DNA from: Streptosporangiales bacterium
GTDB lineage: Bacteria; Actinomycetota; Actinomycetes; Streptosporangiales; Streptosporangiaceae
Assembly (NCBI GenBank): GCA_017882645.1
Contig: JADGPC010000021.1
Location: 1-43,847, forward strand
Reading direction: 5' to 3'
DNA length: 43,847 nt
The stretch's first letter is position 1; every line of letters starts with the position of its first letter. The position numbers and the translations under genes are program-made. The notes below the pieces were generated by a model. It was not told where the DNA came from, did not search any database, and worked only from the letters and a program-made list of their open reading frames with translations. Shown here in pieces: positions 2,870-43,847 of this stretch.

Positions 2870-2954
2870 CCGCCCGATTGCCGGGCTCCTCCCCGATCCG
2901 CCCGATTGCCGGGCTCCTCCCCGTATCCGCCCGACTCCCGGGCTCGTCCCTCGA
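2870..2954 (+). repeat. Three tandem C-rich ~28-nt direct repeats in the rho leader
   Basis: Unit 1 is 2870-2897 ccgcccgattgccgggctcctccccgat. Unit 2 is 2898-2926 ccgcccgattgccgggctcctccccgtat. Unit 3 is 2927-2954 ccgcccgactcccgggctcgtccctcga (diverged). The array ends 11 nt before the rho start codon region. Confidence 0.9.
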
Positions 2955-2965
2955 AAGGATTTTCG

Positions 2966-4201: not shown

Positions 4202-4279
4202 GCGCGGCCCGGTTGTCCCCAGCCGGCCGACCTGCCATGCTGGCGAGCGTCATACGCGTGGACCTGAACGGGGAAAGCC

Positions 4280-7980: not shown

Positions 7981-7981
7981 G

Positions 7982-10900: not shown

Positions 10901-11569
10901 CCCGAACGGGGGTGCGCCGCGCGCGAGCCGGTCAGCGGCGGCGGACTCGGCGTCGGTGAACGAACCGACGATCCCCTGCGGCTCGCCCTGCTTGCCCACG
11001 TCACCCCATCGCCCGAGGCTCACCGGCAGGCCAGCCAGCTCGATGAGCGTCCAGCCGGCGGAATTGGCGAGGCCGCCTGGACCGAGGCCGCGAACCGCGG
11101 TCACGCTGACGCCCGGCGCGACGAGCAGCCCGTCGATCACGGGCGCCGCCACCTCGACGGTGGATGTGCCCGGGTACAGCGTGGCGATGCCGCCGATGGT
11201 CGAGGCCGTCGGGCCGCCGCTGAACGTCAGCACGTATCCGCCGGCCGCGGGCACCTCCACGTCGACGCTGACCCTGGACATGGCCCCGTCCGGCCAGGTG
11301 ATCATGGTCAGCAGGTCGGCGAACAGGAGCTGCCGCGACGAGATCGTGAGGGTCTGCCAGGGCGGAGCCGCCGCGTGCGGCCGCGCCCAGATCCCGAACG
11401 GCTCGGTCGGCATGCCCATGCTCGCCTTGAGCATCCAGCGCAGCTCGAGTACCGAGCCGTACGGCTTGAGGTTCCCGCCCGGCAGCCCGAGCCGCTTCGC
11501 CACCGCGTCCCAGTTGACGATGGCGCCCTCGCCGTGGAAGAGGGCCGGGTCGACGACGTACGACGGCAT
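7982..11569 (-). CDS. Giant protein B (1195 aa), unknown function; FN3-like module
   Basis: Track ORF 7982..11590. Start placed at ATG 11569 (MPSYVVDP), 2 nt after the stop of protein A (TGAccATG), with GGAAGAGGTGGA upstream. No signal peptide. SSHVQISWTAQPNAAGYYVYEST (about 9176-9538) looks like a fibronectin-III-type module. Otherwise unrecognised. Confidence 0.85.
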   Translation of the reverse strand: MPSYVVDPALFHGEGAIVNWDAVAKRLGLPGGNLKPYGSVLELRWMLKASMGMPTEPFGIWARPHAAAPPWQTLTISSRQLLFADLLTMITWPDGAMSRVSVDVEVPAAGGYVLTFSGGPTASTIGGIATLYPGTSTVEVAAPVIDGLLVAPGVSVTAVRGLGPGGLANSAGWTLIELAGLPVSLGRWGDVGKQGEPQGIVGSFTDAESAAADRLARGAPPFGWGPDLGAGYPAPVWAAPSYPALVTEVNDELLDALHDIVAGFPPDQQAAQVINVPLPPPENSSGQQMSGGGSTTQLAPLPMTLMAASADPFLTLALGFGTAYDAPQSEVGIVGRGPQDFMITAHWENGLDGASGPADYAAVIPAPGAAFPPDAPANMAAAELGALRPIAADGDWRDSIRVSWDRPAASQLVRLASFAAARAGIAPAEPAVTLLDPRPSGGYRPIAINQSTQTPDPEFFRLNVVDRELGIPASPGTRQVKYGAAIADSYGQWSPWTSVDQSLFQPDLEPVQIVGATLTPSGPASGSVCATTLELEFCWDWRIRSPLQVTFTGLMYPATGHGDPPPSLTIPAGLDRSLAGGGGPLVVTFSGDVPSAPGSVLVALTANGDQAGGFGSAQGDDTRRYRLTMSGLAIDFATTGFAGMAIWAQGQEQIAPQRLTPWSAQPVIVSTGDPRPPVVPVPHVLLGSLPDATGSSHVQISWTAQPNAAGYYVYESTEASFADASGLPEPAQSDTLDQRLTVLRNAFLANPLRRPFTRLNATALTGSSLDVTLPRGSTGIHLYVVLGVSAGQVESDWPGGPAADDSLIAVAAPRITTPAAPTIEIQRVLDTTVMPPAFTASVLVTTRPGPRPVRIDLHRVRVDDAARELDTMGPPVARLTASGGGWTVTQVPDPVYGPYISTAQGADAPPGSWKRVWYRATAWTGDDATRGGLAGRSAASNAAWVVLPPPNGPSIPGLLTGGGPGAGDVYLEWTCASPVPRTPLGPHQLAVRAKVPGAPIGTTPLLSLDTTLDALGTAQPAAGSGVWIYGTSFGVTTYLAIVRRAAVTDAVDFAVRITDPIGRTGAQLLTIPAGPADPPPDLENLVMRVLPGVPRQTVLTFTSTSPVTALLDGPYVLRVTGVKQQPFQLPPPPALTIPLPSVPARLPIGPVPESYLVRSLAGPPYTYTVVTTAAVAGFVVRITGPDGQFAQKAAS

Positions 11570-11571
11570 GG

Positions 11572-24505: not shown

Positions 24506-24572
24506 TTCACCATTTCCGCCGCCTGTCAACGTGAACGCCGTGATTGTCGGTGCCCTGACATAGTCTGACCTG

Positions 24573-29278: not shown

Positions 29279-29660
29279 GTCAGATCCGTCACCGCCCGGT
29301 ACCAGACCCAGACTCGCAGAGGATCGCCCTCAGAACTCCGCAGGCCGGCCGAATCCGGCCGTGATCCACGTGTCTCGGGTCGACGAATTGTCGGCGGCCC
29401 GTGGTACTATACGAATGATTGTTCGAGAGAGATGGCGTGACCGGGGCCGCAGGAGACGGAGCGGCCAGGCAGTCCGGTAGTTGGTGGTCCCCTTCAGGGG
29501 AGTTCCGCCCCGGCCACGGCCCTCCGCAGGCATGATCCCCCGCCTTTCCCTGATGTGAATTCTTCCGCAACGAAAGCGCGCCCGCGAATGGCGGGCACAA
29601 TGGCCGATCCGGGCTACTCCGCACTGTGCTGCCGCCGACGCCGCTCCCGCTCTCGCTCGG

Positions 29661-29684: not shown

Positions 29685-29769
29685 CGCTGCCCGCATAGCC
29701 CGATCCTCGTGTGCCGCCCGATCCTGGTGCGGCTCGACCTGGCTGCCGACCCCTTCCGAGGAGGTGCGC

Positions 29770-31355
29770 ATGTGCGTTCCCGGCCAGTCCGCCGCCCCCG
29801 GCGCGCCTGCCCCGGCGCCGGCGAGCACGCGGCAGGCGCTTGCCGCACTGCACGGCGCGCTGGCCTATCTGGCCACAGCGGACGCGACCGCGCTGACAAC
29901 CGCCGAGCAGGCGGACTGCCTGCGCATCCTCGAGCGCGCCGAATCGGTCAGGACCGCCGCCCACGCCACGGTCCTGACTGCGTTCAACGCCGGCTGCGGA
30001 TACGAGGACGACGGCCACGGCTCGGCCAGGTCCTGGCTGCGCTGGCGGACCCGGGTCACCGGTCCGGCCGCCGCCGCCGCGATAGCCTGGACCCGCCGCC
30101 TTGCCGCCCACCCCGCCGTCGCCGACGCCCTCGCCGCCGCTGGCATCTCCGCCGCTGGCATCTCCGCCGCTGGCATCTCCGCCTCGTGGGCCCGGCAGAT
30201 CTGCGACTGGACCGACCTGCTCCCGCCGGCCGCCCGCCCCGATGCCGACACCATCCTGCTCGCGGCGGCCGCCGCCGGCGCCGAGCTTGCCGACCTCGCC
30301 GGGCTGGCCGATGAATTGCGCAGCCGCACTGCCGCGCCCGACGAAGACGGCGATGATGACGGATCCGGCCGGTCGGTCCGCCTGGACCTGCACTACCGCG
30401 GCCACGGGCACCTCCGCGGCGACCTCACCCCCCGCTGCGCCGCCGCGCTGCGAGGAATCCTCGACGCCCTCGGCAAGAAGGCCGGCCCCGAGGACACCCG
30501 CACCAAGCCGCAGCGCGACCACGACGCGCTCGAAGAAGCCGGCCGCCGCCTGATCGCCGCCGACACCCTGCCCGACCGGGCCGGACAGCCCACCCGGATC
30601 CAGCTCCACATGAGTCTCGATGACTTTCTCAACCCGCCGCCCGGCACCGCACCCGGCCACGGCAGCGGCGGCCAGCCGGGCGGCACGCCCGGCGACGGCA
30701 GCAAGCGGGAGTACCTGGCCCGGGTCCTGGGCCTGCGGCCTTTCAACCTCACCGGGCCCGCCCCGGCCGGCTGGGCCGGACCCGGACCGCACGCCACGCC
30801 AGGCGACCTGTGCGACGCCACCATCACCCCCGTCGTCACCGGCCACGCCGACCACGAACTTCTCGACCGGCTCGCCGCCGAGCTCCTCGGGCACGTCAGC
30901 CCGAGCGGCGAGCAGGGGCGCCTCGGTCCGGCCTACGCCCGCGAGCTGATCCTCCGCAACGCCATCGCCCTGCTCTCCGGGCCTGCCGGACTCGCATCCC
31001 GCCTCCGCGCGACCCGCCTCACCGGGCCCGCCGCCTCCGTCAGCCTCCCCCTCGACGTCGGCACCGCGACCGACACCATCCCCCCGCACCTGCGCCGCGC
31101 CGTCATCCTCCGCGACACCCACTGCGCCTTCCCGGGCTGTGACCAGCCGCCCGCCGCCTGCCAGGTGCACCACATCGTCCCCCGCAGCCAAGGCGGCCCG
31201 ACCAGCCTGAACAACCTGCTGCTGACCTGCACCTTCCACCACCTCATCGTCATCCACCAATGGGGCTGGTTCTCAGCGCAGACGGCACCACGACAGCCGT
31301 CAGCCCCAACCGGACCCGCACCCTCCGCAGCCACGGACCTCCCAGCGCGGCCTAG
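29770..31355 (+). pseudogene. DUF222 / HNH endonuclease (REP13E12-like repeat family), frameshifted near the 3' end
   Basis: ATG 29770 lies 5 nt after GAGGAGG. The DUF222-type N-terminus is ALAYLATADATALTTAEQADCLRILERAESV..GHGSARSWLRWRTRVT. The HNH core is LRDTHCAFPGCDQPPAACQVHHIVPRSQGGPTSLNNLLLTCTFHHLIVIHQWGW. After WGW (about 31268) the family-typical tail VLSADGTTTAVSPNRTRTLRSHGPPSAA* is readable only in the +2 frame and ends at TAG 31353-31355. Confidence 0.8.
30136..30180 (+). repeat. 3 x 15-nt perfect tandem repeat inside the DUF222-HNH gene, encoding (AAGIS)3
   Basis: gccgctggcatctcc is repeated exactly three times: 30136-30150, 30151-30165 and 30166-30180. Confidence 0.95.
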
Positions 31356-31464
31356 GTCCCTGGGCCGGGCGGTGATCCGGCCAGGAACCCGGACCGGGCA
31401 ATGGCTCGCCGGCTCTTTCGTGTTACCGGCGGGTAGAACGGGGCACGTCCTCAGGGACAACCAC

Positions 31465-33423
31465 ATGACGGGACCTTCCATGAGCACTTCTCAGGCAGAC
31501 CATGTCCGCAACGTGGACGAGCGCGAAGCACGGAAGACGGCAGAAGAGGCGCGGGAGGCCGGATGGCATCGGCCCAGCTTCGGCAAGCAGCTGTTCCTCG
31601 GAGACTTCCAGCTCGACCTGATCCACCCGCATCCGCGTCCCGATGAGGAAGCCGCCGCCCGCGGCGAGGAGTTCTGCACCCGGCTACGCGAGTTCTGCAA
31701 GACCTCGGTCAGCGGCGCCGAGATCGAGCGGGACGCCCGGATACCCGATGACGTCGTCACGGGTCTCGCCTCGCTCGGCGCATTCGGCATGAAGATCGCC
31801 CCCGAGTTTGGCGGTCTCGGGCTGAGCAACCTGTACTACAACCGGGCACTGATGATCGTCGGCTCCGCATCGCCCGCGATCGGCGCGCTGCTGTCCGCGC
31901 ACCAGTCCATCGGCGTCCCGCAGCCGCTCGCGCAGTTCGGCAGCGACGAGCAGAAGCAGGAGTACCTGCCCAGGTGCGCGCGGGGCGAGATCAGCGCGTT
32001 CCTGCTCACCGAGCCCGACGTTGGCTCCGATCCGGCCAGGCTGAACACCACGGCCACTCCTTCGGACGACGGATCAGAGTACGTGCTGAATGGCGTGAAA
32101 CTCTGGACCACCAACGGCGTGGTCGCTGACCTGCTCGTGGTGATGGCACGGGTACCGAAGAGCGACGGGCACCGGGGCGGGATCAGCGCGTTCGTGGTGG
32201 AGGGCAGCGCGCCTGGGATCACCGTCGAGCGGCGCAACGCCTTCATGGGCCTTCGTGGCCTGGAGAACGGGGTGACCAGGCTCCATGACGTCGTCGTCCC
32301 GGCCGCGAACCGGATCGGCCAGGAGGGTCAGGGCCTGAAGATCGCCCTGACCACGCTGAACACGGGCAGGCTGTCACTGCCGGCCAGCTGCGCCGCGGCC
32401 GGAAAGCTGGCTCTGAAGATCGCCAGGGAATGGTCCGGCGAGCGAGTGCAGTGGGGCCGGCCGGTCGGCGAGCACGAGGCCGTCGCCAAGAAGATCTCGT
32501 TCATCGCCGCCACCACCTACGCACTCGAGGCCGTAGTCGAGCTGTCCAGCCAGCTCGCCGACGACAAGCGGAACGACATCCGGATCGAAGCGGCGATCGC
32601 CAAGCTCTACTGCTCCGAGATGGGCAGCATCATCGTGGACGAGCTTGTGCAGATCAGGGGGGGCCGTGGCTACGAAACGGCCGAGTCGCTGGCCGCGCGC
32701 GGCGAGCGCGGCGTGCCCGCCGAGCAGATGCTGCGGGACATGCGGATCAACCGGATCTTCGAGGGATCCTCGGAGATCATGCGGCTGTTCATTGCCCGCG
32801 AGGCGGTCGACGCGCATCTGTCGGCGGCAGGCGACGTCATCGACTCGGAGCTGCCCGCGGCGCGCCGCGCCCGCGCTGCCGCGCAAGCCGGCCAGTTCTA
32901 TGCCAAGTGGCTGCCCACGCTGGTCACCGGCCAGGGGCAGCGGCCCAGTGCCTACAGCGATTTCGGCCCGCTCGCGGCGCACCTGCGCTATGTCGAGCGG
33001 GCCAGCAGGAAGCTGGCCAGGGTGACCTTCTACGGGATGGGACGGTGGCAGGGCCGCCTCGAGCGCAAGCAGGGATTCCTCGGCCGGATCGTCGACATCG
33101 GCGCCGAGCTGTTCGCGATGAGCGCGGTCTGCGTCCGCGCGCAGATGGACGCCAAGGTCGCAGCGGGCACGAGCCGGGCCGCTGTCGCGCACGAGCTCGC
33201 AGACGTGTTCTGCACCCAGGCCCGGCTGCGGGCGGAGGAACGGTTCAGCCAGCTGTGGCACAACACCGACTCGGCCGACGTCGTGCTGGCCCGGCAGGTA
33301 CTCAGCGGCCGGTATACCTGGCTTGAGCAGGGCATCATCGACCCGTCACTACCTGGCCCGTGGATTTCCGCCGCGGAGCCAGGGCCGTCCAAGGCGGAGA
33401 ACGTGCACCGTCACATCGGCTGA
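31465..33423 (+). CDS. Acyl-CoA dehydrogenase, long form (~650 aa, FadE10/ACAD9-VLCAD-like with a C-terminal extension)
   Basis: This is the downstream part of the artefactual 1219-aa track ORF. ATG 31465 (MTGPSMSTSQ) follows AGGGA; ATG 31480 is an alternative. LTEPDVGSDPARL, YVLNGVKLWTTNG, GQGLKIALTTLNTGRLSL, QIRGGRGYET and RINRIFEGSSEIM are canonical ACAD motifs. Confidence 0.9.
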   Translation: MTGPSMSTSQADHVRNVDEREARKTAEEAREAGWHRPSFGKQLFLGDFQLDLIHPHPRPDEEAAARGEEFCTRLREFCKTSVSGAEIERDARIPDDVVTGLASLGAFGMKIAPEFGGLGLSNLYYNRALMIVGSASPAIGALLSAHQSIGVPQPLAQFGSDEQKQEYLPRCARGEISAFLLTEPDVGSDPARLNTTATPSDDGSEYVLNGVKLWTTNGVVADLLVVMARVPKSDGHRGGISAFVVEGSAPGITVERRNAFMGLRGLENGVTRLHDVVVPAANRIGQEGQGLKIALTTLNTGRLSLPASCAAAGKLALKIAREWSGERVQWGRPVGEHEAVAKKISFIAATTYALEAVVELSSQLADDKRNDIRIEAAIAKLYCSEMGSIIVDELVQIRGGRGYETAESLAARGERGVPAEQMLRDMRINRIFEGSSEIMRLFIAREAVDAHLSAAGDVIDSELPAARRARAAAQAGQFYAKWLPTLVTGQGQRPSAYSDFGPLAAHLRYVERASRKLARVTFYGMGRWQGRLERKQGFLGRIVDIGAELFAMSAVCVRAQMDAKVAAGTSRAAVAHELADVFCTQARLRAEERFSQLWHNTDSADVVLARQVLSGRYTWLEQGIIDPSLPGPWISAAEPGPSKAENVHRHIG

Positions 33424-34163
33424 GGCTGGCCTGGCCCGGCGATGTTCCGGATACCGACCTCGTCGGCATGCGCCAGCAGGTCGGCGGGGTCAGCGTAGAC
33501 GCGGTAGGCGCCTGCGCGCTCCAGTTCCTCGCGACCGTATCCGCCAGATAGCAGCCCGATGCCCAGCGCCCCGGCGCGCCGGGCGGCGAGCAGGTCCCAG
33601 ACGCTGTCCCCCACCACCATGGCGTGGGCCGGATCGACGCCCAGCAGCGCGGCGGCGGCCAGGAAGAGATCAGGATCCGGCTTGGCGTGCCTGACCATAT
33701 CGCGGGTCACCATGACCGCATCGTCGCCTACGCCGAGCAGCTTCAGCGACTGACGTGCCATCACGGCCCGCCCGCTGGTCGCGATCGCCCATGGCACCTT
33801 GTGCGCCGTCAGCGCCGCGAGCAGCTGCGGCGCTCCGGGCAGCGGCCGGACGGAATCGATCTGAGCCAGGTACTCGGCGGCGTGATCCTCCTGCAGGCAC
33901 TCGATGTCCTGCTCCGACAGGGACCGGCCGGTCTCTCGCAGCAGTGCCGAGACGAAGAGCCCGCCGCTCATGCCGATCCGGCGGTGAATCCGCCAGACCG
34001 ACAGCTCGATATCGAGCTTGGCCAGCGCGTTCCGCCAGGCGATCACGTTCTGGTAGACACTGTCGATCAGCGTGCCGTCCAGGTCGAACAGGAACGCTGG
34101 CACCGGAGGTTCGGCGTACGCGGGCCGGCCCGCCACGTCTGCCGGATCCGTCACGTCTACCAC
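33411..34163 (-). CDS. HAD-IA family hydrolase (phosphatase, phosphoglycolate-phosphatase/beta-PGM-like)
   Basis: 250-aa ORF. Motif I is FLFDLDGTLIDS, motif II is AIATSG, and motifs III/IV are KPDPDLF ... VVGDSVWDLLAARRAG. Its 3' end overlaps the convergent ACAD gene by 13 nt. Confidence 0.85.
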   Translation of the reverse strand: MVDVTDPADVAGRPAYAEPPVPAFLFDLDGTLIDSVYQNVIAWRNALAKLDIELSVWRIHRRIGMSGGLFVSALLRETGRSLSEQDIECLQEDHAAEYLAQIDSVRPLPGAPQLLAALTAHKVPWAIATSGRAVMARQSLKLLGVGDDAVMVTRDMVRHAKPDPDLFLAAAALLGVDPAHAMVVGDSVWDLLAARRAGALGIGLLSGGYGREELERAGAYRVYADPADLLAHADEVGIRNIAGPGQPQPM

Positions 34164-34826
34164 ACTAGCGCCGAGCTGATATCTGCTGGGCGGGCAGGCT
34201 CCGCAGATCGGGACACCGCTCGAGCAGGTCCTCCACGGCCAGCCAGCCGACTGAACGCGGCCGCGTCGATCGAGATCGGCGCCGTGGTCGTCGAGACGCG
34301 CCGCTGGTCAGGCAGGACGACCGTCGACCCGTGCACCGAGACGCCCACGTCGGTCAGCAGCCGGGCGCAGGCCCGCACGAAATTCGCCCGGTACCGCTCG
34401 GCGTGGAAGGAGATGACATCGGCGCCCAGCATGCCGAGCAGGATCTCCCGACGCCACGGCAGCCGGCCGAAGATCTCCGGCGCGGGCCAGGGAACATGCA
34501 GGAAGAAGCCGACCGGCTGATCGGGGCGGCGTTCCCTGATCAGCCCGGGCACGAGCGTCAGGTGATAGTCATGCACCCACGCGAGGGCACCATGGCGCTC
34601 GTCGAGAGCGCTAATCGCGGCCTCAGCGAAGGTGCCGGTGACGTCCCGGTAGCTCCGCCACCAGCTGCGCTCGAACCGCGGCTTCTCGATCGCGTCGTGC
34701 AGCAGCGGCCACCGGGTCGCCGTGCTGGATCGGCAGGGTGTTGGCGATCGCCACCACCGGAGCCTTACGCTGCGGAAGCATAAGCCTGCTGTTCGCCACT
34801 CGAGTCGACAGCTGCGCGGCTCTCAT
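34157..34826 (-). pseudogene. otsA: Trehalose-6-phosphate synthase (GT20) remnant: internal deletion, frameshift, C-terminal half missing
   Basis: Track ORF 34157..34576 reads HDYHLTLVPGLIRERRPDQPVGFFLHVPWPAPEIFGRLPWRREILLGMLGADVISFH, collinear with E. coli OtsA residues about 130-230. The same frame upstream gives RWPLLHDAIEKPRFERSWWRSYRDVTGTFAEAAI. The N-terminal VVAIANTLP (NRLP-like) is in another frame (ORF 34623..34826), with about 70 residues missing. Nothing matches the C-terminal 240 residues. Confidence 0.8.
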
Positions 34827-34970
34827 CGATCTGACTCATGAGGGCTTTCCCTCACCCCGAATGACGATGTCAAACAAGATCACCTCGGCGGCCGGGCAGC
34901 AGGGAAGAGAGCGCTGGCTGGCCTTCGCCCAGGCCGGGCGGCGAGCGAGGTGGGTCCGTTTAAGAGCGGC

Positions 34971-36503
34971 TCAGTGCAACCAGCGGCGGTAGCGGGACCG
35001 GGACGCCTCCCGCCAGGTGCGCCTGGCGTGCTTCTGCAGAGCGGCCGCCGCCTGATCATCTCGCTCGTACATCAGGCCGTAGCTGAACGCGTTCTCGCCG
35101 GCCAGGTGCGCGCTCATGCCTAGCTCGCGCTCGGTCCGCCGGGCGATGACGGCGTCCTGATGGTCGCCGAGCACGGACTGCATCCGCTTCATCTGCCTGG
35201 CAAACTGGCTCGCCTCCTGGCCGAAGGCAGGCGCTACCGCCTCGCCGGCGTAGCGGGCGCGCTTGGCCGCCTTGCGAGCCCGGTGCAAGGCATTGTCGCG
35301 GCGCGCGCCGGCCGGCGCGCGCCTCGCCTGCTTCATCCGGCGGCTGGTCGTGCCGTAGGCCTTCCGCACGGCGGCCGGAAGGACATCGGTGGCCGCACGG
35401 GCCGCGATGCCGGTCCGCGGCGGCTCGGCGGTAACCCGGTCGAGCCGGTCGAGCAGGGCGAAGTACCGCGGTGAGTCCAGCGCCGCCAGCACGCCGGCCT
35501 GGGCCTCGGCGCCGATCCGGGCGAAATGGCCGAGCACCCGGGCCATGACCGGCCCGACCATCAGCTCCTCCGGCAGCTGGCCGGCTCGCTCAGCCAGGTG
35601 CCCGGCGAGGACCTCCGCATCGCGCGCCTCGCCCAGCACCGCGCCGAGCCAGCGCAGCTCGTCAGCCAGCGAGTCACTCACCGAGCCGGCGACGACTGAG
35701 TCGGCGAAGAACGGGGCGAAGACCTGCAGCGTGCTGCGCAGCCGCCGGACCGTGGTCCGCATCTGATGCACCGCATCAGGCTCGCTCTCCCGCACCATCG
35801 GGTCGAGCGTCTTCAGCATCGCCAGCTGCGCTCCGAGGTAGGCCTGCAGTACCTGGCCGGCGGTCGCCGACCCACCGGGCGGCGGCTTCTGCGCAGGCGG
35901 CGGCGGAAGTCCGAGCGCGCGCGCGAGCTTGGCGGACTGGCCGGACCGGTTCAGGCCGGCCCGGCGCAGCAGATTGTCCGCGGCCACGAGAACGTCCTGG
36001 TTCCCGCCGGTCAGCTCGAGTTCCACCTCGTGCCACTGCGACTCTCGCGTCGCGTCGCCCAGGGTCCGAGCCGTTACGTCGTCGGACGCCACCTCTGCCA
36101 GCGAGTTACCCGAGCCGTCGAGCAGCAGCTGCCGCCGCCTCGAGGTGCTGATCATGGCCACCGGCTTGAGTTCCTCGCCCCTGGTATGCACCCGGACACG
36201 GCGAGCGAGCTCGTCGGGAACGCGGGTGCGGGACCGGCCGAGCGGCAGCCGGATCTCGCACCTGGTATGGGGCCCGGCGGGAAGCTTCAGGTGCCAGCCG
36301 GAGTCATGACCGCCCCGTCGCCGGCGCAGCGTAATCCCCGCCCTGATCAGGCGCAGGTCGCCGGTATCGAAGTATTCGGCATCGAGCTGCTCGCTGGCTG
36401 CCTGGCGGGTGCGGGCTACCTGGGGCAGGACGTCGAAGGTCGGCAGCGGGACGCCGGCGGCGGCCTCGTACTTGATCTCGGTCTCGCGTGCTTTCACGGC
36501 CAT
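34971..36503 (-). CDS. CYTH and CHAD domain-containing protein
   Basis: 510-aa ORF. The N-terminal RETEIKYEA is the ExExK signature of CYTH triphosphate-tunnel enzymes. The C-terminal half is a helical, His/Arg-rich CHAD pattern (VHQMRTTVRRLRSTLQVF, LHRARKAAKRARYAGE, LGDHQD). Confidence 0.85.
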   Translation of the reverse strand: MAVKARETEIKYEAAAGVPLPTFDVLPQVARTRQAASEQLDAEYFDTGDLRLIRAGITLRRRRGGHDSGWHLKLPAGPHTRCEIRLPLGRSRTRVPDELARRVRVHTRGEELKPVAMISTSRRRQLLLDGSGNSLAEVASDDVTARTLGDATRESQWHEVELELTGGNQDVLVAADNLLRRAGLNRSGQSAKLARALGLPPPPAQKPPPGGSATAGQVLQAYLGAQLAMLKTLDPMVRESEPDAVHQMRTTVRRLRSTLQVFAPFFADSVVAGSVSDSLADELRWLGAVLGEARDAEVLAGHLAERAGQLPEELMVGPVMARVLGHFARIGAEAQAGVLAALDSPRYFALLDRLDRVTAEPPRTGIAARAATDVLPAAVRKAYGTTSRRMKQARRAPAGARRDNALHRARKAAKRARYAGEAVAPAFGQEASQFARQMKRMQSVLGDHQDAVIARRTERELGMSAHLAGENAFSYGLMYERDDQAAAALQKHARRTWREASRSRYRRWLH

Positions 36504-36508
36504 GACTA

Positions 36509-36544
36509 CTCGCTACCCGCACGGACGGCTCGCTACCCGCACGG
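36509..36544. repeat. Two copies of a 16-nt direct repeat, 20-nt period, immediately upstream of the CYTH-CHAD start codon
   Basis: ctcgctacccgcacgg occurs at 36509-36524 and again at 36529-36544. On the coding strand this reads CCGTGCGGGTAGCGAG x2, ending 5 nt before ATG 36503. Confidence 0.85.
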
Positions 36545-36606
36545 TTCGCGGGCGCACGGCAGTGATGGCCGGCATACATTGGCCGTTTGGGGGCAGTTGG
36601 CACGCC

Positions 36607-36771
36607 ATGAGTATAAGAAGCAGTGTGCCGGGCCTCCTCTGGTGGCTGTTTTGGTTCCTAGTGGCGATCTTGCTCATCATCCTCGCCGCTCTGGTCATCC
36701 ATCACCTCGGCGGGTTCAATCTCGCCTTCCACGTCGGTTACTTCCACTTCCAGCTCGGCGTCACCGGTTAA
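36607..36771 (+). CDS. Small hydrophobic protein (54 aa, one predicted TM helix)
   Basis: ATG 36607 to TAA 36769-36771 encodes MSIRSSVPGLLWWLFWFLVAILLIILAALVIHHLGGFNLAFHVGYFHFQLGVTG. Local composition is AT-richer than the surroundings and the RBS is weak. A 15-bp hairpin follows 17 nt downstream. Confidence 0.4.
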   Translation: MSIRSSVPGLLWWLFWFLVAILLIILAALVIHHLGGFNLAFHVGYFHFQLGVTG

Positions 36772-36788
36772 TCCGGGCGGACCAGAAA

Positions 36789-36825
36789 GGCGCGTGGCCG
36801 GCCACGAACCGGCCGGCCGCGCGCC
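36789..36825 (+). terminator. GC-rich 15-bp stem-loop after the small ORF (no U-tract)
   Basis: ggcgcgtggccggcc (36789-36803), loop acgaacc, then ggccggccgcgcgcc (36811-36825). The arms are complementary with one G-U pair. No T-run follows, so if it is a terminator it is of the actinobacterial non-canonical type. Confidence 0.4.
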
Positions 36826-37160
36826 ATGATCACCGGATCCTGCAGGTCAGTTATTTATGCGACCCGAATGACGTGGCCTGCGCGCAATTACAGACATTGC
36901 CTCGACCTGAGTGGCGCTTCTCTTTTCGTACTAAATGATCGCGCAGGTTCTTGCTTATTTAGCGCTGAAAGCCTCCGGCATCCGTTTCGGCCTGGCTACT
37001 ATTCAACCCGCGTGGCTGTTCTAGGGCCGCCACGGAAGTACGCCGTACGAGCGATGGGATCTCACGGGGGAGAAATCCGATGCTCTGGACATGGCGCATT
37101 CAGACGATCGGAAGCGACCGCGTCGCATTTCAGCTGGGGCCACGCGCTGGCCGCCACCGG

Positions 37161-38675
37161 ATGCGGCGATCCTTCACATCGGCGCTGGCCGCCTCAGCCC
37201 TCGCGGCCGGCGCCGCGGCGTGCGGGCCGGCCCATGCGCTGCCCCCGAGTGTCAGCCTGGCGGCGGTTACCCGTCCGCCCCGGGTGGCGACCACGGTGCT
37301 GGCCGGGCCTCCCGACGTCGTGGCCGCGAGCGCGGCCTCGCGGCTGTTCGCCTCTTCTCCCCTCGTCGTGGTCGCGAACGCGGACCGGGAAGCCGACCTG
37401 GCCAGGGGAGCAGATCGGGCCGAGCGCGCGCACGCACCGCTCCTGCTGCTCTCACCAAGGCGGCAGCGCGCGGCCACCACCCTGGCCGCCCGCGTCGCGC
37501 TGCGGACGGAGACCCGCGCGCTGGCGGCTCGCGCCGTGCTCGACGTCGGCGTAAGCCGGACGCTGCTCTCGGCCGAACTGCCGTCGCTCCAGGTGATCAC
37601 CGCAGCCACCGCACTGCCGCACCGAGGGGCGCCGACCCCGCTCACCAATGTGGTGATGCTCGTGCATCGCGGTTACACGAATACGGGAACGACCGCCGCC
37701 GTGGCCACCGCCCGGGCGGCCGGGGTGCAGGTCATCACCGTCGCTGGCTTCGACCCTCGGGCTGACCCTTCGGCCATCTCGGCACTGTCAGCGGCCAGGC
37801 CCCAGCACGTCATCGCGGTAGGCGCCGGCTTCGGTTCCACCCGGCTCCTGGCTGTGCGGGTCGCCGTGGCCGCCACCGGAGTGCAGCTGCCGGGCGGCGG
37901 AGACGTCCTCCTCCCGATGCACAGGCTGCTCGCCCTCTATGGCTATCCGGGAACGCCAGCGCTCGGAGCACTGGGCGAGCAGAGCCTGAGCGCGAGTGTC
38001 GCGCGGATCCACCGGATCGCCGCGGCCTACCGGCCGCTGAGCAGCGTGCCGGTGGTTCCGACCTTCGAGATCATCGCCACCGTCGCGCAGGCAAATCCGG
38101 GACCGGACGGCAGCTACTCCTACGAGTCCGCGGTGTCCTCGCTCCGCCCCTGGGTCCGGCGCGCGACACAGGCGGGCATGTACGTCGTCCTTGACCTGCA
38201 GCCGGGGCGGGCCAGTCTGCTCGCCCAGGCCCGGCGGTACCGGTCACTGCTGCAGCTGCCCGACGTCGGGCTGGCACTTGACCCGGAGTGGAAGCTCCAG
38301 CCCGGTCAGCTGCCGCTGCGCCAGATCGGCAACGTGGCCATCAGCGAGGTCAACGGCGTCGTCCGCTGGCTGGCTGGCCTCACGGCCCGGTACCACCTGC
38401 CGCAGAAGCTGCTCGTCCTGCACCAGTTCAGGCTGTCGATGATCAGCGACGAGCAGCGGCTCGACACCCGCCACGACGACCTCGCGATCGTCATCCACAT
38501 GGACGGGCAGGGCACGCCCGAGGACAAGCTCCAGACCTGGCAGGCCGTCACCAGGAACGCACCAGCTGGCGTGTTCTTCGGATGGAAGAACTTCTTCGTC
38601 AAGGATCACCCGACGCTCAGTCCGCAGCAGACGATGGCCAACTCCCCGAAACCGGTCATGATCTCGTACCAGTGA
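37161..38675 (+). CDS. Putative lipoprotein; N-terminal cell-wall-binding-repeat-like region, C-terminal domain of unknown (possibly glycosidase-like) function
   Basis: Track ORF 37080..38675. ATG 37161 gives MRRSFTSALAASALAAGAAACGP, a signal peptide with a lipobox-like LAAGAAAC. PLVVVANADREADLARGADRAERAHAPLLLLS resembles CWB2-type repeats. The C-terminal MYVVLDLQPGRASLL...LALDPEWKL...LLVLHQF...IVIHMDGQG is conserved-looking but I cannot name it. Confidence 0.6.
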   Translation: MRRSFTSALAASALAAGAAACGPAHALPPSVSLAAVTRPPRVATTVLAGPPDVVAASAASRLFASSPLVVVANADREADLARGADRAERAHAPLLLLSPRRQRAATTLAARVALRTETRALAARAVLDVGVSRTLLSAELPSLQVITAATALPHRGAPTPLTNVVMLVHRGYTNTGTTAAVATARAAGVQVITVAGFDPRADPSAISALSAARPQHVIAVGAGFGSTRLLAVRVAVAATGVQLPGGGDVLLPMHRLLALYGYPGTPALGALGEQSLSASVARIHRIAAAYRPLSSVPVVPTFEIIATVAQANPGPDGSYSYESAVSSLRPWVRRATQAGMYVVLDLQPGRASLLAQARRYRSLLQLPDVGLALDPEWKLQPGQLPLRQIGNVAISEVNGVVRWLAGLTARYHLPQKLLVLHQFRLSMISDEQRLDTRHDDLAIVIHMDGQGTPEDKLQTWQAVTRNAPAGVFFGWKNFFVKDHPTLSPQQTMANSPKPVMISYQ

Positions 38676-38698
38676 ACGCCGCGCGCGGCGCTTTCCCG

Positions 38699-39385
38699 CT
38701 AAGGCCCAGGTGCCCCCGGCGCCGTCGCGGCTGATGCTGGCGCAGGCGGCGCGGGCGGCATCGCCGCTGGCGCCTTGCTGGCCAGCAGCTTGGTGATGTC
38801 CAGTTTGGTGCCGACCATCTGCTTGAGCATGAAGTCGTGGTTGAGGTCGAGTATCGCGCGAGTCTCCGCCGCGATCACGGCATTGCGGCTGAGCGTCAGC
38901 TCGTTGTCCTGCTCCTGCTCGCCTGACAGGGACCAGTTGGTCGACCCTTTCACGGTGAAGACGCCGTCGATGATCACGATCTTCAGGTGCGAGATCGCGT
39001 TATGGACGGAACTGGTGCCGATCGCGATGCTGTTGCCGAAGGCGTCGTTCTGCCACTGGGCCAGGATCTGCTTCTCGTGCACGCCGCTGGCCTGGCTCCG
39101 GTCCAGGCTCATCTGGACGTACACCTTCTCGTCCGCGAGCTTGGCGTGGATGATCTTGTTCAGCTCGTCGTCGTCGTAGCCGAACATGTTCACCACGATG
39201 GAGTGCTGTGCCGTACCGAGCAGCGCCACCAGCAGGCCGTGGACATTGTCACGCGGCGCGAAGAACGTGCGCTGATCGTCCGGGTAACCGTCAAGGAACC
39301 GTCCTTCCGCCTTGTACTTACCCAGGTCCTCCCACGCGAATGGCGCACCAGCCCCAATCGGATTAGGCACCGTCGGATTAGTCAC
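38699..39385 (-). CDS. Single-HKD phospholipase D superfamily protein (Nuc-like nuclease candidate)
   Basis: 228-aa ORF with a GTG 39385 start after GGAAAGGGG. The intact HKD motif is HLKIVIID (38966-38989), followed by GSTNWSLSGEQEQDNE. One motif per chain, as in Nuc-type dimeric nucleases. No signal peptide. Ala/Pro-rich C-terminal tail. Visibly lower GC and more A/T-ending codons than its neighbours. Confidence 0.8.
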   Translation of the reverse strand: MTNPTVPNPIGAGAPFAWEDLGKYKAEGRFLDGYPDDQRTFFAPRDNVHGLLVALLGTAQHSIVVNMFGYDDDELNKIIHAKLADEKVYVQMSLDRSQASGVHEKQILAQWQNDAFGNSIAIGTSSVHNAISHLKIVIIDGVFTVKGSTNWSLSGEQEQDNELTLSRNAVIAAETRAILDLNHDFMLKQMVGTKLDITKLLASKAPAAMPPAPPAPASAATAPGAPGP

Positions 39386-39453
39386 AGCCCGCCCCTTTCC
39401 CCGCCTGGCCCCATCCTGTCGGGTCGGGCCCGGGACGTCTACCCGCGCACCAG

Positions 39454-40437
39454 CTACCCAGGTGGCCGGCCCGCCATCGCCGCGGCGCGCAGGCTCCGGT
39501 ACAGCAGCTGCTGATCCCCGAGCCGCCGGCGCAGCTCGCGCTCGAGGCCGCCGATGGGAACCAGGTTCTGCGGCGCGCGCGGGTCCTTGTGCGGCACGCT
39601 GGCCAGCGGAGGCAGCACCCGGGCGGTCAGGTCGGCGAGCGCGGTGACCGCGGCGGCGGGCAGGTCAGCCGAGCACTCCAGCCGGACCACCCCTGACCAG
39701 GGCGCCCCGGCGGTGCCGGGGAGCCGGAGGTACCACGAGCTGCGCCGCCAGGAAGTGCCCATCGTGAACGCCGGCGTTCGCTGGCCTGGCCGCAACGCGG
39801 CCACCACCGCGGCCTGCTCGGCCGGCAGGTACGACGCGTGATGCGTCTTGACGTAGCCGACGGTCCGGTCCAGGTGCGTGCGCCCGCGCAGCGGGCCGTC
39901 GACGACGAGCAGATCGTCGCCGGCCTGGTGCCGGGCCCGGAAGGCCAGCGCGAGCTGTACCTCGGCGTCGGTGAGCCGCTGCTGGAGCGCGAGCGACAGC
40001 TGATCGGCCCCGGGCCCGGCGGCGAGCCGCGCCGGGTACCGCGCGGACCTGGTCACTAGGTCGGTTGCGTCCGGTGCGGCGGTGAACAGGCCGCGCTCGA
40101 CGGCGACGTCCGCAATCCGCGCAGCCCCGTCGCAGGCCACGATGCCGGCCGCGTAGGACGCGGCGATGCCCGGGCCAGGCTGCGGGTCGCCGCCGTGGAC
40201 CCAGATGCTCGCGTCGATCCGGCGCACCCCGTCGAGGAAAAGGACCAGGCCGGGAAGCGCGGGGGCCGGATCAGGATCGAGCGGCCGCCACTGCGCGGCC
40301 GGCACCTCGAGGTCCAGGTGCAGCTCGGCCGTCGACGCGGCCATCGCCCCGCCGTCCAGCTCGTCCCCGAACGCCATCCCGTAGCCGGGATCCCACGGGT
40401 CCACCGTGAACGAGACGGCCCCGCCCGCCGCGGTCAC
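39454..40437 (-). CDS. Hypothetical protein, NurA-like (RNase-H-fold nuclease) candidate, translationally coupled to sbcC
   Basis: 327-aa ORF. GTG 40437 overlaps the sbcC stop (GTGA). The ordered acidic/His motifs are LVLFLDGVRR (D69), VAVERG (E114), DLLVVDGPLRG (D180) and GYVKTHH (H199/H200). These echo the D-E-D-H arrangement and the hhhhDGxL signature of NurA nucleases. Assignment is by eye only. Confidence 0.45.
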   Translation of the reverse strand: MTAAGGAVSFTVDPWDPGYGMAFGDELDGGAMAASTAELHLDLEVPAAQWRPLDPDPAPALPGLVLFLDGVRRIDASIWVHGGDPQPGPGIAASYAAGIVACDGAARIADVAVERGLFTAAPDATDLVTRSARYPARLAAGPGADQLSLALQQRLTDAEVQLALAFRARHQAGDDLLVVDGPLRGRTHLDRTVGYVKTHHASYLPAEQAAVVAALRPGQRTPAFTMGTSWRRSSWYLRLPGTAGAPWSGVVRLECSADLPAAAVTALADLTARVLPPLASVPHKDPRAPQNLVPIGGLERELRRRLGDQQLLYRSLRAAAMAGRPPG

Positions 40438-42878
40438 GCGATGCCTTCCTTGCGCAGCGTTGACGTGGTTCCCGCGCGGCTGACCACGAAGCGGACCGGG
40501 ACGCGCTCGGCCAGCGCGGGCACGTGCGTGATGATTCCGATCATCCGGTCGGAGTCGGCCGAGAGCCGCTCGAGCGTGGCTCCGACGGTCTCGAGCGTGT
40601 CCTCGTCCAGCGTGCCGAAGCCCTCGTCGAGGAACATCGAGTTCAGGTCGCGCCTGCCCGCCGAGAGTCCGATCACCTGCCGGGACAACGCAAGAGCCAG
40701 GGCGAGCGAGGCCTGGAACGTCTCGCCGCCCGACAGCGTGTGCACCGGCCGCCTGGCCCCGGCGTCCTGGTAATCGATCACGAACAGGTCGTTGCGCTCG
40801 TCGCGGTCGAGCTGGTACTGCCCGCCGGACAGCTCGAGCAGCGTCGCCGACGCCTCGGCGACCAGCGAGTCGAGGGCCTCGCCGCAGAGCCAGCGCTCGA
40901 ATGACGACGCCCGCAGCAGCCGGCCCAGCATGGTCGCGACCTGTTCCTCCTCCCGGTGCGCCCGGATCTGGTCGTCAAGTCCGCCGGCCTGGGCCCGGCT
41001 GGCGCGGACGGCGGCAAGCTTGTTCGCTGCGCGTTCCCGGTGCGTCGCGACCGCGGCCTCGCACTGGCCAGGATCGGAGACTTCGGTGATGCCGTGCTCG
41101 GCCAGCTGCCCGGCCAGCGCGGCCTGCACGTCCGTGACCTGGCGGTGCAGGGCGCCGGCTGCCGCGTCGAGGTCCGCCTGGTGCGCCTGGCGCTCGTCCT
41201 GCTGCGTCCTGGCCCATCCGGTGAGCGCGTCCCACGCCGCGGACAGGTCCTGGCCGGCCGTGGCCGGAGCACCGAGCCGGACGACGGAGTCGCGCGCGGT
41301 GCCGAGATCAGCCCAGGCCCGCCGCTCGTCCTCGCTGAGGCTGGCCCGTTCTGCCTCGGCCCCGGCCAGTGCCTGCCGTGCGGCCCTGGCTGCCTGCTGG
41401 GCACGGCCGAGCAGCTTGTCCGCCGTCGCGATCGCTTCGAGCGACGCACGGACCTCGACTTCGCCCGGCGCGCCGTCCAGTGCGGCGGACACCCGGTCGA
41501 GCTGTCTCTGCGTCTCCTCGACATCCCGGCCCGCCACGGCCGCGGCCCTGGCGGCCTGGTCATGCGCGGAGTGGGCCCGCTTCACCTCGCTGGCCGCCCG
41601 GTCGGCCGCGGCCTGTGCTTCCATCAGGTCGGCCGGGACCGGGTGGTGTGGCAGCGACGTGACGCGCCGCAGGCAGACTGGGCAGTCGGCGCCGACGGTC
41701 AGATCCTGAGCCAGCGCGACGGCGGCATGGGTCCGGTCGGTGGCGGCTAGTTCCCGCCTGGCCTCGGTGAGCTTGGCCTCGGCGGACGTCAGCGCCGCCG
41801 ACCGCGCATCCAGATCGGCACGCCGGACGGCCAGCGCCTGTTCCTGCTGCTCCAGGCGGGTCCGAAGCCCGGAGTGCTCCGCGTAGGCCTCGCGCAGCCG
41901 CTCGGTGCGCGTCTTGTCGGGCAGTGCGTCACGGGCCTGCTGGGCCGCCAGCTCGGCGTGCTCCGCGGCGTCCCGCTGCTCCGTTCGTTCGGCGACCAGT
42001 CCGGCGGCGGCGCCGATCCGCCTGGCCAGGCCCGCCACCTCGGCGGGAACGCGGATGGCGGCCAGCAGTGCGGCATCGGCGGCGGTCGCCCTGGCTTGCT
42101 CCGCTGCCCGGCCGGCCTGCTCGGTGAGGCCGCGCAGCGCCGACAGCTTCTCCTGCACCACGCTGGCGAGCTCCGCGAGCGTCTGCACCCTGGCTGCGGC
42201 CAGATTCTCCGCCTCCGCACTCACGTCAGCGAGTCCCTGCCTGGCCGCCTGCGCCGTCCGCAGCCGTTCCCTGGCCAGGTCAGCCCGCCTGCGGGCCTGC
42301 TGGCCGATCAGGTTGTAGACGCCGAACGCGAGGAGCTCGACCAGCAGGTCCTGCCGGTCGGCCGCCTTGGCGTGCAGGAACTCCGAGAACCGGCCCTGCG
42401 GCAGCAGCACGGACTGGGTGAAGTGCTCGTAGGTCAGGCCCAGGATGTCCTGCACCGCCGACTTGACCTGGTCTGGTCCCTCAGCGAGCGCCTCGATGCT
42501 GGCCGCGAGCAGGTCGGCGAGCGGAGCGCTGGCCGGCACCTGCGGGTCAAGCACCTCCAGCCTGGCCTCCTTGGTATGCACCAGGCCTTTCTTATCCCTG
42601 GTCAGCGCCCTGACCACGCCGTACCGCCGGCCAGCAGCCTCGAAGACGAGGCAGACCCGGCACGAGTTCGCGGCGGGTGCCAGCGCCTGTGCGATCAGGT
42701 TCTCCCGCCCCCACCTGGGCACCGTCCCGTACAAGGCGAAGCACAGACCGTCGATGACCGTGCTCTTCCCCGCGCCGGTCGGGCCGACCAGGGCGAAGAA
42801 GTCCACGTCGGCGAAGTCCGCCTCGGCTGGCTCGCGGTAGGAGCCGAACCCGTCGAGAAGCAGTCGCAGCGGCCGCAT
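40434..42878 (-). CDS. sbcC: SbcC / Rad50-type SMC-like ATPase (exonuclease subunit)
   Basis: 814-aa ORF. Walker A is LVGPTGAGKSTVIDG. A long Ala/Glu/Arg/Leu-rich coiled coil carries a central CPVC zinc hook (41673-41684). Signature LSGGETFQASLALALALS, Walker B MFLDEGFGTLD and H-loop IGIITHV are all present. The ATG overlaps the sbcD stop (TGATG). Confidence 0.9.
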   Translation of the reverse strand: MRPLRLLLDGFGSYREPAEADFADVDFFALVGPTGAGKSTVIDGLCFALYGTVPRWGRENLIAQALAPAANSCRVCLVFEAAGRRYGVVRALTRDKKGLVHTKEARLEVLDPQVPASAPLADLLAASIEALAEGPDQVKSAVQDILGLTYEHFTQSVLLPQGRFSEFLHAKAADRQDLLVELLAFGVYNLIGQQARRRADLARERLRTAQAARQGLADVSAEAENLAAARVQTLAELASVVQEKLSALRGLTEQAGRAAEQARATAADAALLAAIRVPAEVAGLARRIGAAAGLVAERTEQRDAAEHAELAAQQARDALPDKTRTERLREAYAEHSGLRTRLEQQEQALAVRRADLDARSAALTSAEAKLTEARRELAATDRTHAAVALAQDLTVGADCPVCLRRVTSLPHHPVPADLMEAQAAADRAASEVKRAHSAHDQAARAAAVAGRDVEETQRQLDRVSAALDGAPGEVEVRASLEAIATADKLLGRAQQAARAARQALAGAEAERASLSEDERRAWADLGTARDSVVRLGAPATAGQDLSAAWDALTGWARTQQDERQAHQADLDAAAGALHRQVTDVQAALAGQLAEHGITEVSDPGQCEAAVATHRERAANKLAAVRASRAQAGGLDDQIRAHREEEQVATMLGRLLRASSFERWLCGEALDSLVAEASATLLELSGGQYQLDRDERNDLFVIDYQDAGARRPVHTLSGGETFQASLALALALSRQVIGLSAGRRDLNSMFLDEGFGTLDEDTLETVGATLERLSADSDRMIGIITHVPALAERVPVRFVVSRAGTTSTLRKEGIA

Positions 42879-43847
42879 CAGGCTCCTTCCGTCGCAGCCA
42901 GGCTGGAACCTTCAGATCCGGTGACCTCGTCAAGCAGCTCGGCGAACATGGCGCTGATCCGCGGATCGGCCACGCTCTGCTCGGCCAGGTAGTCGCCGAA
43001 CAGCTCCAGCGGGCTCCGGCCGGCCCGGCTTGGCCGACCGCCTGGATCGCCCCCGGGACGGGGCCGGTGCGCATCGTCGAGCAGCACCTCGAGGGTGCCG
43101 GGCAGCTTCTCCCTGACCAGGTCGCCCAGTCCGGCGCGGGCCGGCTCAGCGAGCACCACCCGCAGGTAAGCCGCACCGGCCTGTTCCCCTTCCTCGATCA
43201 CCTGGTCCAGCGTCCCGCGCAGGGTCTTCAGGCGGCGGGCACCGGACACCGGAACTGCCCTGGCGTCCGCGCGGACGCCAGGCTCGGCCGTCACGATCAG
43301 CGCGGCCGACTCGTTGGCCTCCTCCCCGAAGTCGATCGGCAGCGGGGAACCGGAGTAGAAGATCGGACACGGCCCGGGGATCTCCTGCTGGCGGTGCAGG
43401 TGCCCGAGCGCGACATAGTGCGCGCTGGCCGGGAACATGCTGGCCGGCAGCTCGTAGTCCAGGGTGGTCTGCACCTCACGCTCGCCGCCGCCGCGGCGGC
43501 CGCCGAGCAGCGTGCCGTGCGCCATGATCACGTTGACGGCGTCCTCGGTGAAGCCCTCAGTCAGCAGCCGCACGATCTCGGCAACCCGCTGCGCATAGTC
43601 GAGCGCGTGCTCGGCGAATTCATGGAAGATCACCTCGGCTGCGCGCACCGCGTACCGGTGCGACAGGAAAGGAAGCGCCGCCACCTTCACCTCGTTGCCT
43701 GCCCTGGTGCGCAGCGACAGCAGGCCGCCCGCGTTCGGCCGCTTGGGCAGGCCCAGTACATGCATCCCGATCTCGCCGAGCACCGGCCGGTATACCGCCT
43801 CGATCAGGGACTGGTTGTCATGGTTGCCGGCGATGACGACGACCTCA
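42878..43847 (-). CDS. sbcD: SbcD / Mre11-type nuclease, C-terminal ~320 codons; 5' end lies outside the window
   Basis: The reverse frame is open to the window edge and reads EVVVIAGNHDNQSLIEAVYRP... (the GNHD phosphoesterase motif), then IMAHGTLLGG and HYVALGHLHRQQ (GHxH motif). The track lists only the part from an internal Met (42878..43783). Confidence 0.88.
   Translation of the reverse strand, partial: EVVVIAGNHDNQSLIEAVYRPVLGEIGMHVLGLPKRPNAGGLLSLRTRAGNEVKVAALPFLSHRYAVRAAEVIFHEFAEHALDYAQRVAEIVRLLTEGFTEDAVNVIMAHGTLLGGRRGGGEREVQTTLDYELPASMFPASAHYVALGHLHRQQEIPGPCPIFYSGSPLPIDFGEEANESAALIVTAEPGVRADARAVPVSGARRLKTLRGTLDQVIEEGEQAGAAYLRVVLAEPARAGLGDLVREKLPGTLEVLLDDAHRPRPGGDPGGRPSRAGRSPLELFGDYLAEQSVADPRISAMFAELLDEVTGSEGSSLAATEGA

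Follow-up and report, generated by a model that had tools for sequence, protein, structure and literature searches.

The analysed stretch of contig JADGPC010000021.1 of a Streptosporangiales bacterium (assembly GCA_017882645.1) ends in the genes sbcD, sbcC and nurA, which we take to be the last three genes of the operon herA-sbcD-sbcC-nurA. By the window we mean the whole stretch of 43,847 nucleotides (nt) that was analysed; these genes, and the PLD gene that follows them, lie on its reverse strand, from 38699 to the window end. They are listed here in order of their coordinates, with the basis of each assignment in brackets (E, expectation value).

38699-39385, reverse strand: gene of the PLD superfamily (single-HKD, Nuc-like), 228 amino acids (aa) (PLDc_2, E 4.6e-9)
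39386-39453, reverse strand: spacer of 68 nt between nurA and the PLD gene (junction coordinates)
39454-40437, reverse strand: predicted nurA, the open reading frame ORF327, 327 aa, GTG start (Pfam NurA, above the gathering score)
40434-42878, reverse strand: sbcC, encoding a Rad50-type, SMC-like ATPase of the short form, 814 aa (TIGR00618 sbcc, E 5e-73)
42878-43847, reverse strand: 3′ three quarters of sbcD, encoding a Mre11-type metallophosphoesterase nuclease (NCBIfam sbcd_Bac, E 4e-25; Pfam SbcD_C)

The stop codon of sbcD and the start codon of sbcC have one base in common (cctgATGcgg, with TGATG at 42878), and the stop codon of sbcC overlaps the GTG of ORF327 by 4 nt (GTGA, 40434-40437). 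A simple scan of the coding strand found no terminator-like or sigma-70-like site in the 68-nt spacer 39386-39453, and at the homologous spacer of a related metagenomic contig, L087, the called nurA gene reads through and overlaps the PLD gene. The four reverse-strand reading frames, the overlaps of 1 and 4 nt and the 68-nt gap are all as described in the first-pass annotation, which had been made from the letters of the window alone. That annotation was also right about the domain and position of sbcD, but the gene is incomplete. It is known to be cut because the full gene, of 397 codons, is contained in a second contig, L004, whose overlap with the window extends for 5742 nt at 98.9% identity. 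The window begins at about codon 75, so that the 5′ end of the gene, some 74 codons, lies outside it.

L004 also reveals what precedes sbcD. Upstream of the remainder of that gene there is a gap of 20 nt, and then a gene encoding a protein of 592 aa. This protein has no match in Pfam and gives E 0.13 against the archaeal HerA model of NCBIfam. Its match to the HerA of Deinococcus (7F6D chain B) has E 1e-137, in two stretches spanning residues 16-567. The Walker A (GVSGIATKTS) and Walker B (VMLDELNKY) sequences align with those of Deinococcus HerA, at the positions where the paper describing 7F6D assigned K175/T176 and D487/E488. The layout is identical in L006, a 2.2-Mb contig of a metagenome-assembled genome (MAG) that is 93% identical to the window, and in the close relative L007. 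From L004, L006 and L007 we infer that herA lies just past the window end, 5′ of sbcD. It had been suggested that a HerA-type ATPase might be encoded beyond 43847, and extension through L004 finds one at the predicted place.

The product of ORF327 is predicted to be a conserved NurA nuclease of the bacterial type, with an RNase H fold. It scores 26.8 bits against the Pfam NurA family (PF09376; gathering score 21), and a profile built from 31 homologues matches the NurA of Deinococcus radiodurans (7F6D chain H) over residues 42-319 with E 7.4e-28, and TM1739 of Thermotoga (1zup) with E 2.7e-6. Among 41 NurA members, down to 35% identity, the invariant features are D69, E159, D180, K197, the RAPxN block and E299, consistent with an intact active site of the RNase H type. 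An AlphaFold model, calculated with an alignment that was shallow (31 sequences of 76-91% identity), has a mean predicted local distance difference test score (pLDDT) of 57. In the secondary structure of this weak model D69 on strand 1, E159 in the first of the long helices and D180 on the DGP strand occupy places where a DED triad would be expected. The top Foldseek matches of the model are 7f6d_G and 1zup, followed by TdpB (8wfd_G); they agree with the result from the sequence and add little to it. An exact look-up of the ORF327 sequence returned no record, and close homologues were taken instead. The family comprises 1378 clusters at 50% identity (E up to 1e-3). The NurA-like nuclease proposed earlier for this reading frame is thus upheld by the Pfam score, the profile match and the residues that are invariant across the family. 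Automated annotation currently calls NurA a 'hypothetical protein' and HerA an 'ATP-binding protein'.

The remaining pair has the expected character of SbcCD. The full-length SbcD of L004 (397 aa) matches E. coli SbcD (6s6v) with E 4e-30, and archaeal Mre11 with 5e-9. The motifs GNHD, HG and GHLH are present in the translation of the window, with DWH and GDLF in the N-terminal part supplied by L004. SbcC matches the Pfam families AAA_23, SMC_N and SbcC_Walker_B, and gives E 3e-41 with E. coli SbcC (6s6v) and 8e-9 with archaeal Rad50. It has a Walker A sequence (GPTGAGKS), the LSGGE signature, a Walker B sequence (MFLDEGF) and, at residue 399 of 814, the CPVC of a zinc hook. Nearly all of the intact relatives retain these three motifs together with a CPxC hook. 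Thus the two proteins carry the motifs that define a Mre11-Rad50 pair, a metallophosphoesterase and an ATPase with a zinc hook, and they are predicted to form one. The length of SbcC is 800-849 aa in 70 of 83 copies, most intact ones having about 806-819 aa; long forms of 1006-1150 aa occur in L087, on a Streptomyces plasmid and on a cyanobacterial plasmid. Taken together, the four products are predicted to be a HerA hexameric translocase of the bacterial type, an SbcD nuclease, a short zinc-hook SbcC ATPase and a NurA of the bacterial type.

How widely is this arrangement conserved? A relative of ORF327 is encoded in at least 568 species genomes, taking one genome per species. The neighbourhood was surveyed for the best 80 of these together with five metagenomic loci, 85 in all. 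The best 80 are mostly from Streptosporangiales (Nonomuraea, Sphaerisporangium, Actinomadura, Herbidospora, Microbispora, Acrocarpospora, Planotetraspora and Thermocatellispora), with Pseudonocardiaceae too. The genes herA-sbcD-sbcC-nurA are contiguous and in the same order at 70 of the 85 loci, and the operon is interrupted by a contig end at a further six. Among the four proteins HerA is the most conserved, at 62-97% identity across genera, and SbcC the least. Thus herA-sbcD-sbcC-nurA is a recurrent four-gene unit of Streptosporangiales and Pseudonocardiaceae, made up of tightly packed or overlapping genes. A four-gene order had been noted in the window and does recur, but its composition was different from that proposed; the set noted was sbcD-sbcC-nurA-PLD, whereas the fourth conserved gene is herA and not the PLD gene.

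Indeed, the PLD gene follows nurA only in L004, L006 and L007 (3 of the 85 surveyed loci) and in L087. It is absent from L009, L020, L023 and L025, though these retain the convergent downstream gene, a homologue of that at 37080-38675 of the window. Its G+C content is 63%, compared with 70-76% for the genes of the module, and homologues that are 84-87% identical stand alone in unrelated neighbourhoods. No match to the gene was found in the plasmid collection or in phage genomes. Loss of the gene elsewhere was considered as an alternative to gain here. Gain or relocation is favoured because the gene is confined to the nearest relatives, is lower in G+C and has close homologues that stand alone. 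Thus the PLD gene is best regarded as a lineage-specific addition at the 3′ end of the operon, not as the fourth member of the unit for which it had been taken. It is probably co-transcribed with the operon as an accessory gene. The nature of its product is only partly as first proposed. There is one intact HxKx4D...GSxN motif (HLKIVIID...GSTNWS), and with the PLDc_2 match this places the protein in the superfamily, but the specific likeness to Nuc is slight, the best solved relative being the Nuc endonuclease 1byr at E 0.14. Matches to NucT, DrmC and DpdK are weak and far below the family cut-offs, and homologues in JGI carry the names of phospholipid-synthase-like enzymes. The C-terminus of the protein, encoded by 38699-38790 on the reverse strand, is a proline/alanine-rich tail of low complexity (APAAMPPAPPAPASAATAPGAPGP) that is poorly covered in the alignments of homologues.

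The DNA upstream of herA provides an indication of how the operon may be controlled. In 12 relatives these regions are otherwise unalignable, and yet they have in common, about 50 nt 5′ of the start codon, the element TGTCAnnn-N8-TAGGCT. Its -10 sequence is TAGGCT in 10 of the 12, and TATGCT in the other two. In L004 the element before herA, at 762-783, is TGTCATTACTTCGGCGTAGGCT. The consensus of RecA-NDp, the RecA-independent damage promoter of actinobacteria, is tTGTCRgtg-8nt-TannnT (PMC5656591), and this promoter is driven by PafBC (PMC6789036). On the coding strand the pattern TGTCR-N11-TANNNT was found in 14 of 71 herA upstream regions, corresponding to 0.64 per kb against a background of 0.011 per kb over all loci. 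We found no enrichment of LexA SOS boxes upstream of herA. Damage induction of the operon is suggested by the occurrence of TGTCA-N11-TAGGCT about 50 nt before herA in the nearest relatives of the window, and the operon probably belongs to the PafBC damage regulon. Between the putative promoter and the ribosome-binding site of herA in L004 there is a 10-nt direct repeat, GATCGCATCT, present as two copies 3 nt apart (795-817); L007 has a single copy. The repeat could be an operator, or a mere small duplication.

The same pattern occurs twice in the window, where 0.14 matches are expected, and these matches serve as an internal control. At 24545-24566 (forward strand) there is a perfect copy of the consensus, TGTCGGTG-N8-TAGTCT (in full TGTCGGTGCCCTGACATAGTCT), immediately 5′ of lhr (24573-28853). 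The Lhr helicase of mycobacteria is induced by DNA damage (PMC8301817). The second match, at 29389-29410 (forward strand), lies about 350 nt 5′ of a reading frame for a DUF222-HNH protein. Finding two matches where so few are expected suggests that several genes of the PafBC regulon may lie within this 44-kb window.

The four-gene association has been observed before, in other settings. In the archaea Sulfolobus, Pyrococcus and Thermococcus the four functional components are encoded by adjacent genes on one strand and have been proposed to act in end resection, as here. The order of the archaeal operon is herA, mre11, rad50, nurA. The association is described as a hallmark of thermophilic archaea (PMC2288612, PMC4351679), the four genes being named as one operon in that sequence (PMC4351679). 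In their order the actinomycete genes thus agree with those of archaea, but each of the four proteins is bacterial. For SbcD and SbcC the E values with the E. coli proteins stand against values of about 1e-8 with archaeal Mre11 and Rad50, and the HerA and NurA of Deinococcus are less than 20% identical to the archaeal proteins (PMC9960219). The hosts differ too, being thermophiles in the archaeal case and mesophilic soil actinomycetes in the present one. These protein affinities led us to reject wholesale transfer of the operon from archaea, the best matches all being bacterial (Deinococcus, E. coli and Thermotoga). Identity of order combined with bacterial proteins points to a layout that either arose in parallel or has been shared since ancient times, and not to a recent import. 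Thus the archaeal-style Mre11-Rad50-NurA layout that had been seen in the window stands as far as gene order and the presence of HerA are concerned, but its proteins are of the bacterial type and are not orthologous to the archaeal ones.

The closest solved relatives of HerA and NurA are those of the Deinococcus radiodurans NurA-HerA complex (7F6D; DR_0836/DR_0837). Deinococcus HerA shares the unusual Walker A sequence SG(I/V)ATKTS, and the likeness of the NurA proteins extends over nearly the full length, including the C-terminal block HKDxRAPQNL and a conserved aromatic N-terminal segment. In Deinococcus and Thermus the nurA-herA pair alone has been described together, whereas here sbcD-sbcC is placed between herA and nurA. 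In Oceanithermus profundus sbcD and sbcC were noted in passing to lie downstream of hepA (Blesa et al. 2017, PMC5448004). The clusters of Oceanithermus and of cyanobacterial plasmids have the same four-gene association, with proteins of the bacterial type as here, but nurA is the first gene in those clusters and the last in ours. The SbcC of the cyanobacterial plasmid is a long form of 1006 aa, compared with about 810 aa in the actinomycetes. With E. coli SbcCD the present pair shares a Mre11-type nuclease and a Rad50-type ATPase, the CxxC hook and the order sbcD then sbcC. It differs in lying within a four-gene unit, and its SbcC is some 230 residues shorter, with shorter coiled coils. There is a further resemblance in architecture to Sir2-HerA, DUF4297-HerA and TdpAB, each of which combines a hexameric ATPase of the HerA family with a nuclease effector. 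However, the models for defence-associated HerA cover about 100 C-terminal residues of the present protein, with E 1e-4 to 1e-6, far below the family cut-offs. SbcCD is not a component of any of these systems, and the module here has no Sir2 or DUF4297 partner. A structural paper of 2023 described NurA-HerA as confined, within bacteria, to a few such as Deinococcus-Thermus (PMC9960219). Our search of the literature found no description of the actinomycete operon, though older papers may mention actinobacterial clusters of herA, nurA and sbcCD. We conclude that the operon is new and widespread, and of a type of system that is already known.

What might the operon do? We think it probable that these genes form the downstream end of a damage-inducible herA-sbcD-sbcC-nurA operon for DNA-end processing in repair. 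By analogy with the archaeal and Deinococcus proteins, SbcCD would recognize and open DNA ends that are blocked, closed by a hairpin or bound by protein. A HerA6-NurA2 complex would then thread the duplex and degrade the 5′ strand, or both strands, to provide a 3′ tail for RecA. DNA damage would switch the operon on through the actinobacterial PafBC/RecA-NDp pathway, and in this lineage only, the Nuc-like PLD gene would have been inserted after nurA. Of the two functions that had been put forward, a unit for double-strand-break resection and a nuclease-based defence module, the former is favoured, by the putative damage-type promoter, the mostly housekeeping character of the flanks and the lack of a confident match to known defence families.

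A number of observations weigh against this reading. The function of the members in the actinomycete clade is predicted from their sequences. Deletion of nurA or herA in Deinococcus and Thermus changes damage resistance modestly, or even improves it (PMC9960219), and a 2026 study proposes that archaeal HerA-NurA may degrade foreign DNA and not resect ends (PMC12977600). The promoter element of L004 matches the RecA-NDp consensus in its TGTCA core, exact spacing and TAGGCT, but not in the weakly conserved 'gtg', and the loci having the simple pattern are limited to the 14 of 71, many of them mutually related. The chromosome of Nonomuraea gerenzanensis (NZ_LT559118.1, 11.85 Mb; L094) has a single HerA locus but two loci that are SbcD-like, and because of the second of these the SbcCD of the module may not be the general one. 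This replicon is filed in PLSDB as 'plasmid I', so that the apparent plasmid match there is chromosomal. The operon is broken at nine loci from MAGs (L013, L015, L016, L019, L022, L026, L029, L041 and L064), where unrelated genes (luciferase-like monooxygenase, YCII, TetR, epimerase and TMEM175-like) separate sbcD from sbcC-nurA, and no herA was found within 9 kb upstream. In at least two of them, L026 and L064, sbcC is truncated, and these loci look like decay rather than independent function. Lastly, there are indications that the module is mobile. It is present on a 451-kb linear plasmid of Streptomyces, where its neighbours encode an ImmA/IrrE peptidase and a restriction endonuclease. In the order nurA-herA-sbcD-sbcC it is found on a Sphaerospermopsis plasmid (AP018315.1; L093:8959-15959) and a Nostoc plasmid (NZ_CP091916.1; L092), one of which is conjugative; the Nostoc cluster spans the origin of the circular sequence. 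An exchange of the module is apparent in L087 (positions 1-7681; ENA ERZ25039458 contig_12688), which corresponds to 33411-43847 of the window. The flanks, comprising the PLD gene, a gene of 531 aa, CYTH-CHAD and HAD, are 84-95% identical in the two contigs. The module is only 38-60% identical to that of the window, has an SbcC of 1150 aa and is nearest to the copy on the Streptomyces linear plasmid. The last approximately 30 residues of its NurA are identical to those of the window, placing the junction near the 3′ end of nurA. Conserved flanks, a diverged module and an identical NurA C-terminus together indicate that the module was replaced in situ as a cassette, the crossover lying close to where nurA ends.

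The last of these observations lead to the most substantial rival, in which the module and the PLD nuclease would constitute a mobile defence system that destroys the ends of foreign linear DNA of phages, plasmids or conjugative elements, and has no part in host repair. Pairs of a HerA-family ATPase and a nuclease, Sir2-HerA and DUF4297-HerA, are established anti-phage systems (PMC12977600). The model of NurA also resembles TdpB of TdpAB, and PLD nucleases are accessory parts of DISARM and Dpd, to which the matches here are weak. Besides the plasmid copies and the exchange in L087, some metagenomic copies adjoin defence-like genes (TerB, BrxC/BrxD, a Cas3-like helicase, and SNF2 with a MmeI-type methyltransferase). 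The flanks are also very variable, 421 flanking proteins falling into 292 clusters, which would suit a mobile island, but the families that recur in cultured genomes are housekeeping ones (kinase, CBS, LysE, oxidoreductase, glyoxalase and carboxypeptidase); taken together, variable flanks with housekeeping recurrences give no strong argument for or against an island. A search with PADLOC 2.0, whose models include Lamassu, MADS, DISARM, Dpd and the HerA systems, returned no match to the NurA of the window and no confident match to any protein of the module. SbcD has one weak N-terminal match, SbcC a generic one to SMC heads (mad3, LmuB), HerA has partial and weak matches, and the PLD protein weak ones to DrmC/DpdK. 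The module was not found in the phage genomes searched. With the high conservation of HerA across genera and the putative damage-type promoter before herA, these results speak for repair and make a defence role currently the weaker reading; we judge it rather unlikely, and the suggestion of a defence system made from the window gains no positive support from them. A more speculative proposal, to which we give somewhat less credence, is that the operon polices linear DNA ends. In this proposal the four proteins would be one machine for end recognition and destruction, swapped as a cassette among the plasmids and chromosomes of actinomycetes and cyanobacteria, that restricts phage or plasmid DNA or manages linear replicons, and the PLD protein would be an additional effector, taken up in this lineage.

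Alternatively, the genes might simply be co-transcribed neighbours with separate tasks, SbcCD cutting hairpins and palindromes, HerA-NurA acting as a translocase in chromosome segregation or DNA transfer, and the PLD protein acting on lipids. In keeping with this, Thermus has a nurA-hepA duet without adjoining sbcCD, which is carried elsewhere in the genome. The nine broken loci have sbcD apart from sbcC-nurA with no herA nearby, and both the slight match of the PLD protein to Nuc and the JGI names of its homologues would suit a role in lipid metabolism. Yet each of the junctions sbcD/sbcC and sbcC/nurA has a stop codon overlapping the next start codon. The sbcDC pair is situated between herA and nurA in actinomycetes and directly after nurA-herA on the cyanobacterial plasmids, and in Oceanithermus sbcD and sbcC are reported to follow hepA (PMC5448004). 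The truncation of sbcC at two or more of the broken loci has the appearance of decay. Without a functional link it would be difficult to account for the association of the same four genes, in differing orders, among distant phyla, and we regard separate tasks as the least probable of these explanations.

For two decades there has been debate on how HerA-NurA cooperates with Mre11-Rad50, and nearly all of the studies have dealt with hyperthermophilic archaea, in which each of the four genes is essential. Among the actinomycetes, hundreds of species that are mesophilic and for the most part culturable (Nonomuraea, Sphaerisporangium, Actinomadura and others) appear to link a HerA and NurA of the bacterial type to SbcCD. 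They would provide a tractable bacterial model, be it for one resection pathway beside AdnAB and RecBCD or for a destroyer of foreign DNA.

Two further regions of the window contain unusual reading frames. At 4624-18513 (reverse strand) there are three consecutive very large ones of 1118, 1202 and 2313 aa with the codon bias of coding sequence; their sole Pfam match is a weak one to DUF6603 in the largest, and PADLOC gives no match. At 29764-33423 (forward strand) a reading frame of 1219 aa combines an N-terminal DUF222 and HNH endonuclease with a complete acyl-CoA dehydrogenase at the C-terminus. In the syntenic L087 its counterparts are two genes, of 591 and 647 aa. The 1219-aa frame may therefore be either a real fusion or an artefact of calling the longest reading frame where there is no in-frame stop codon between two genes.

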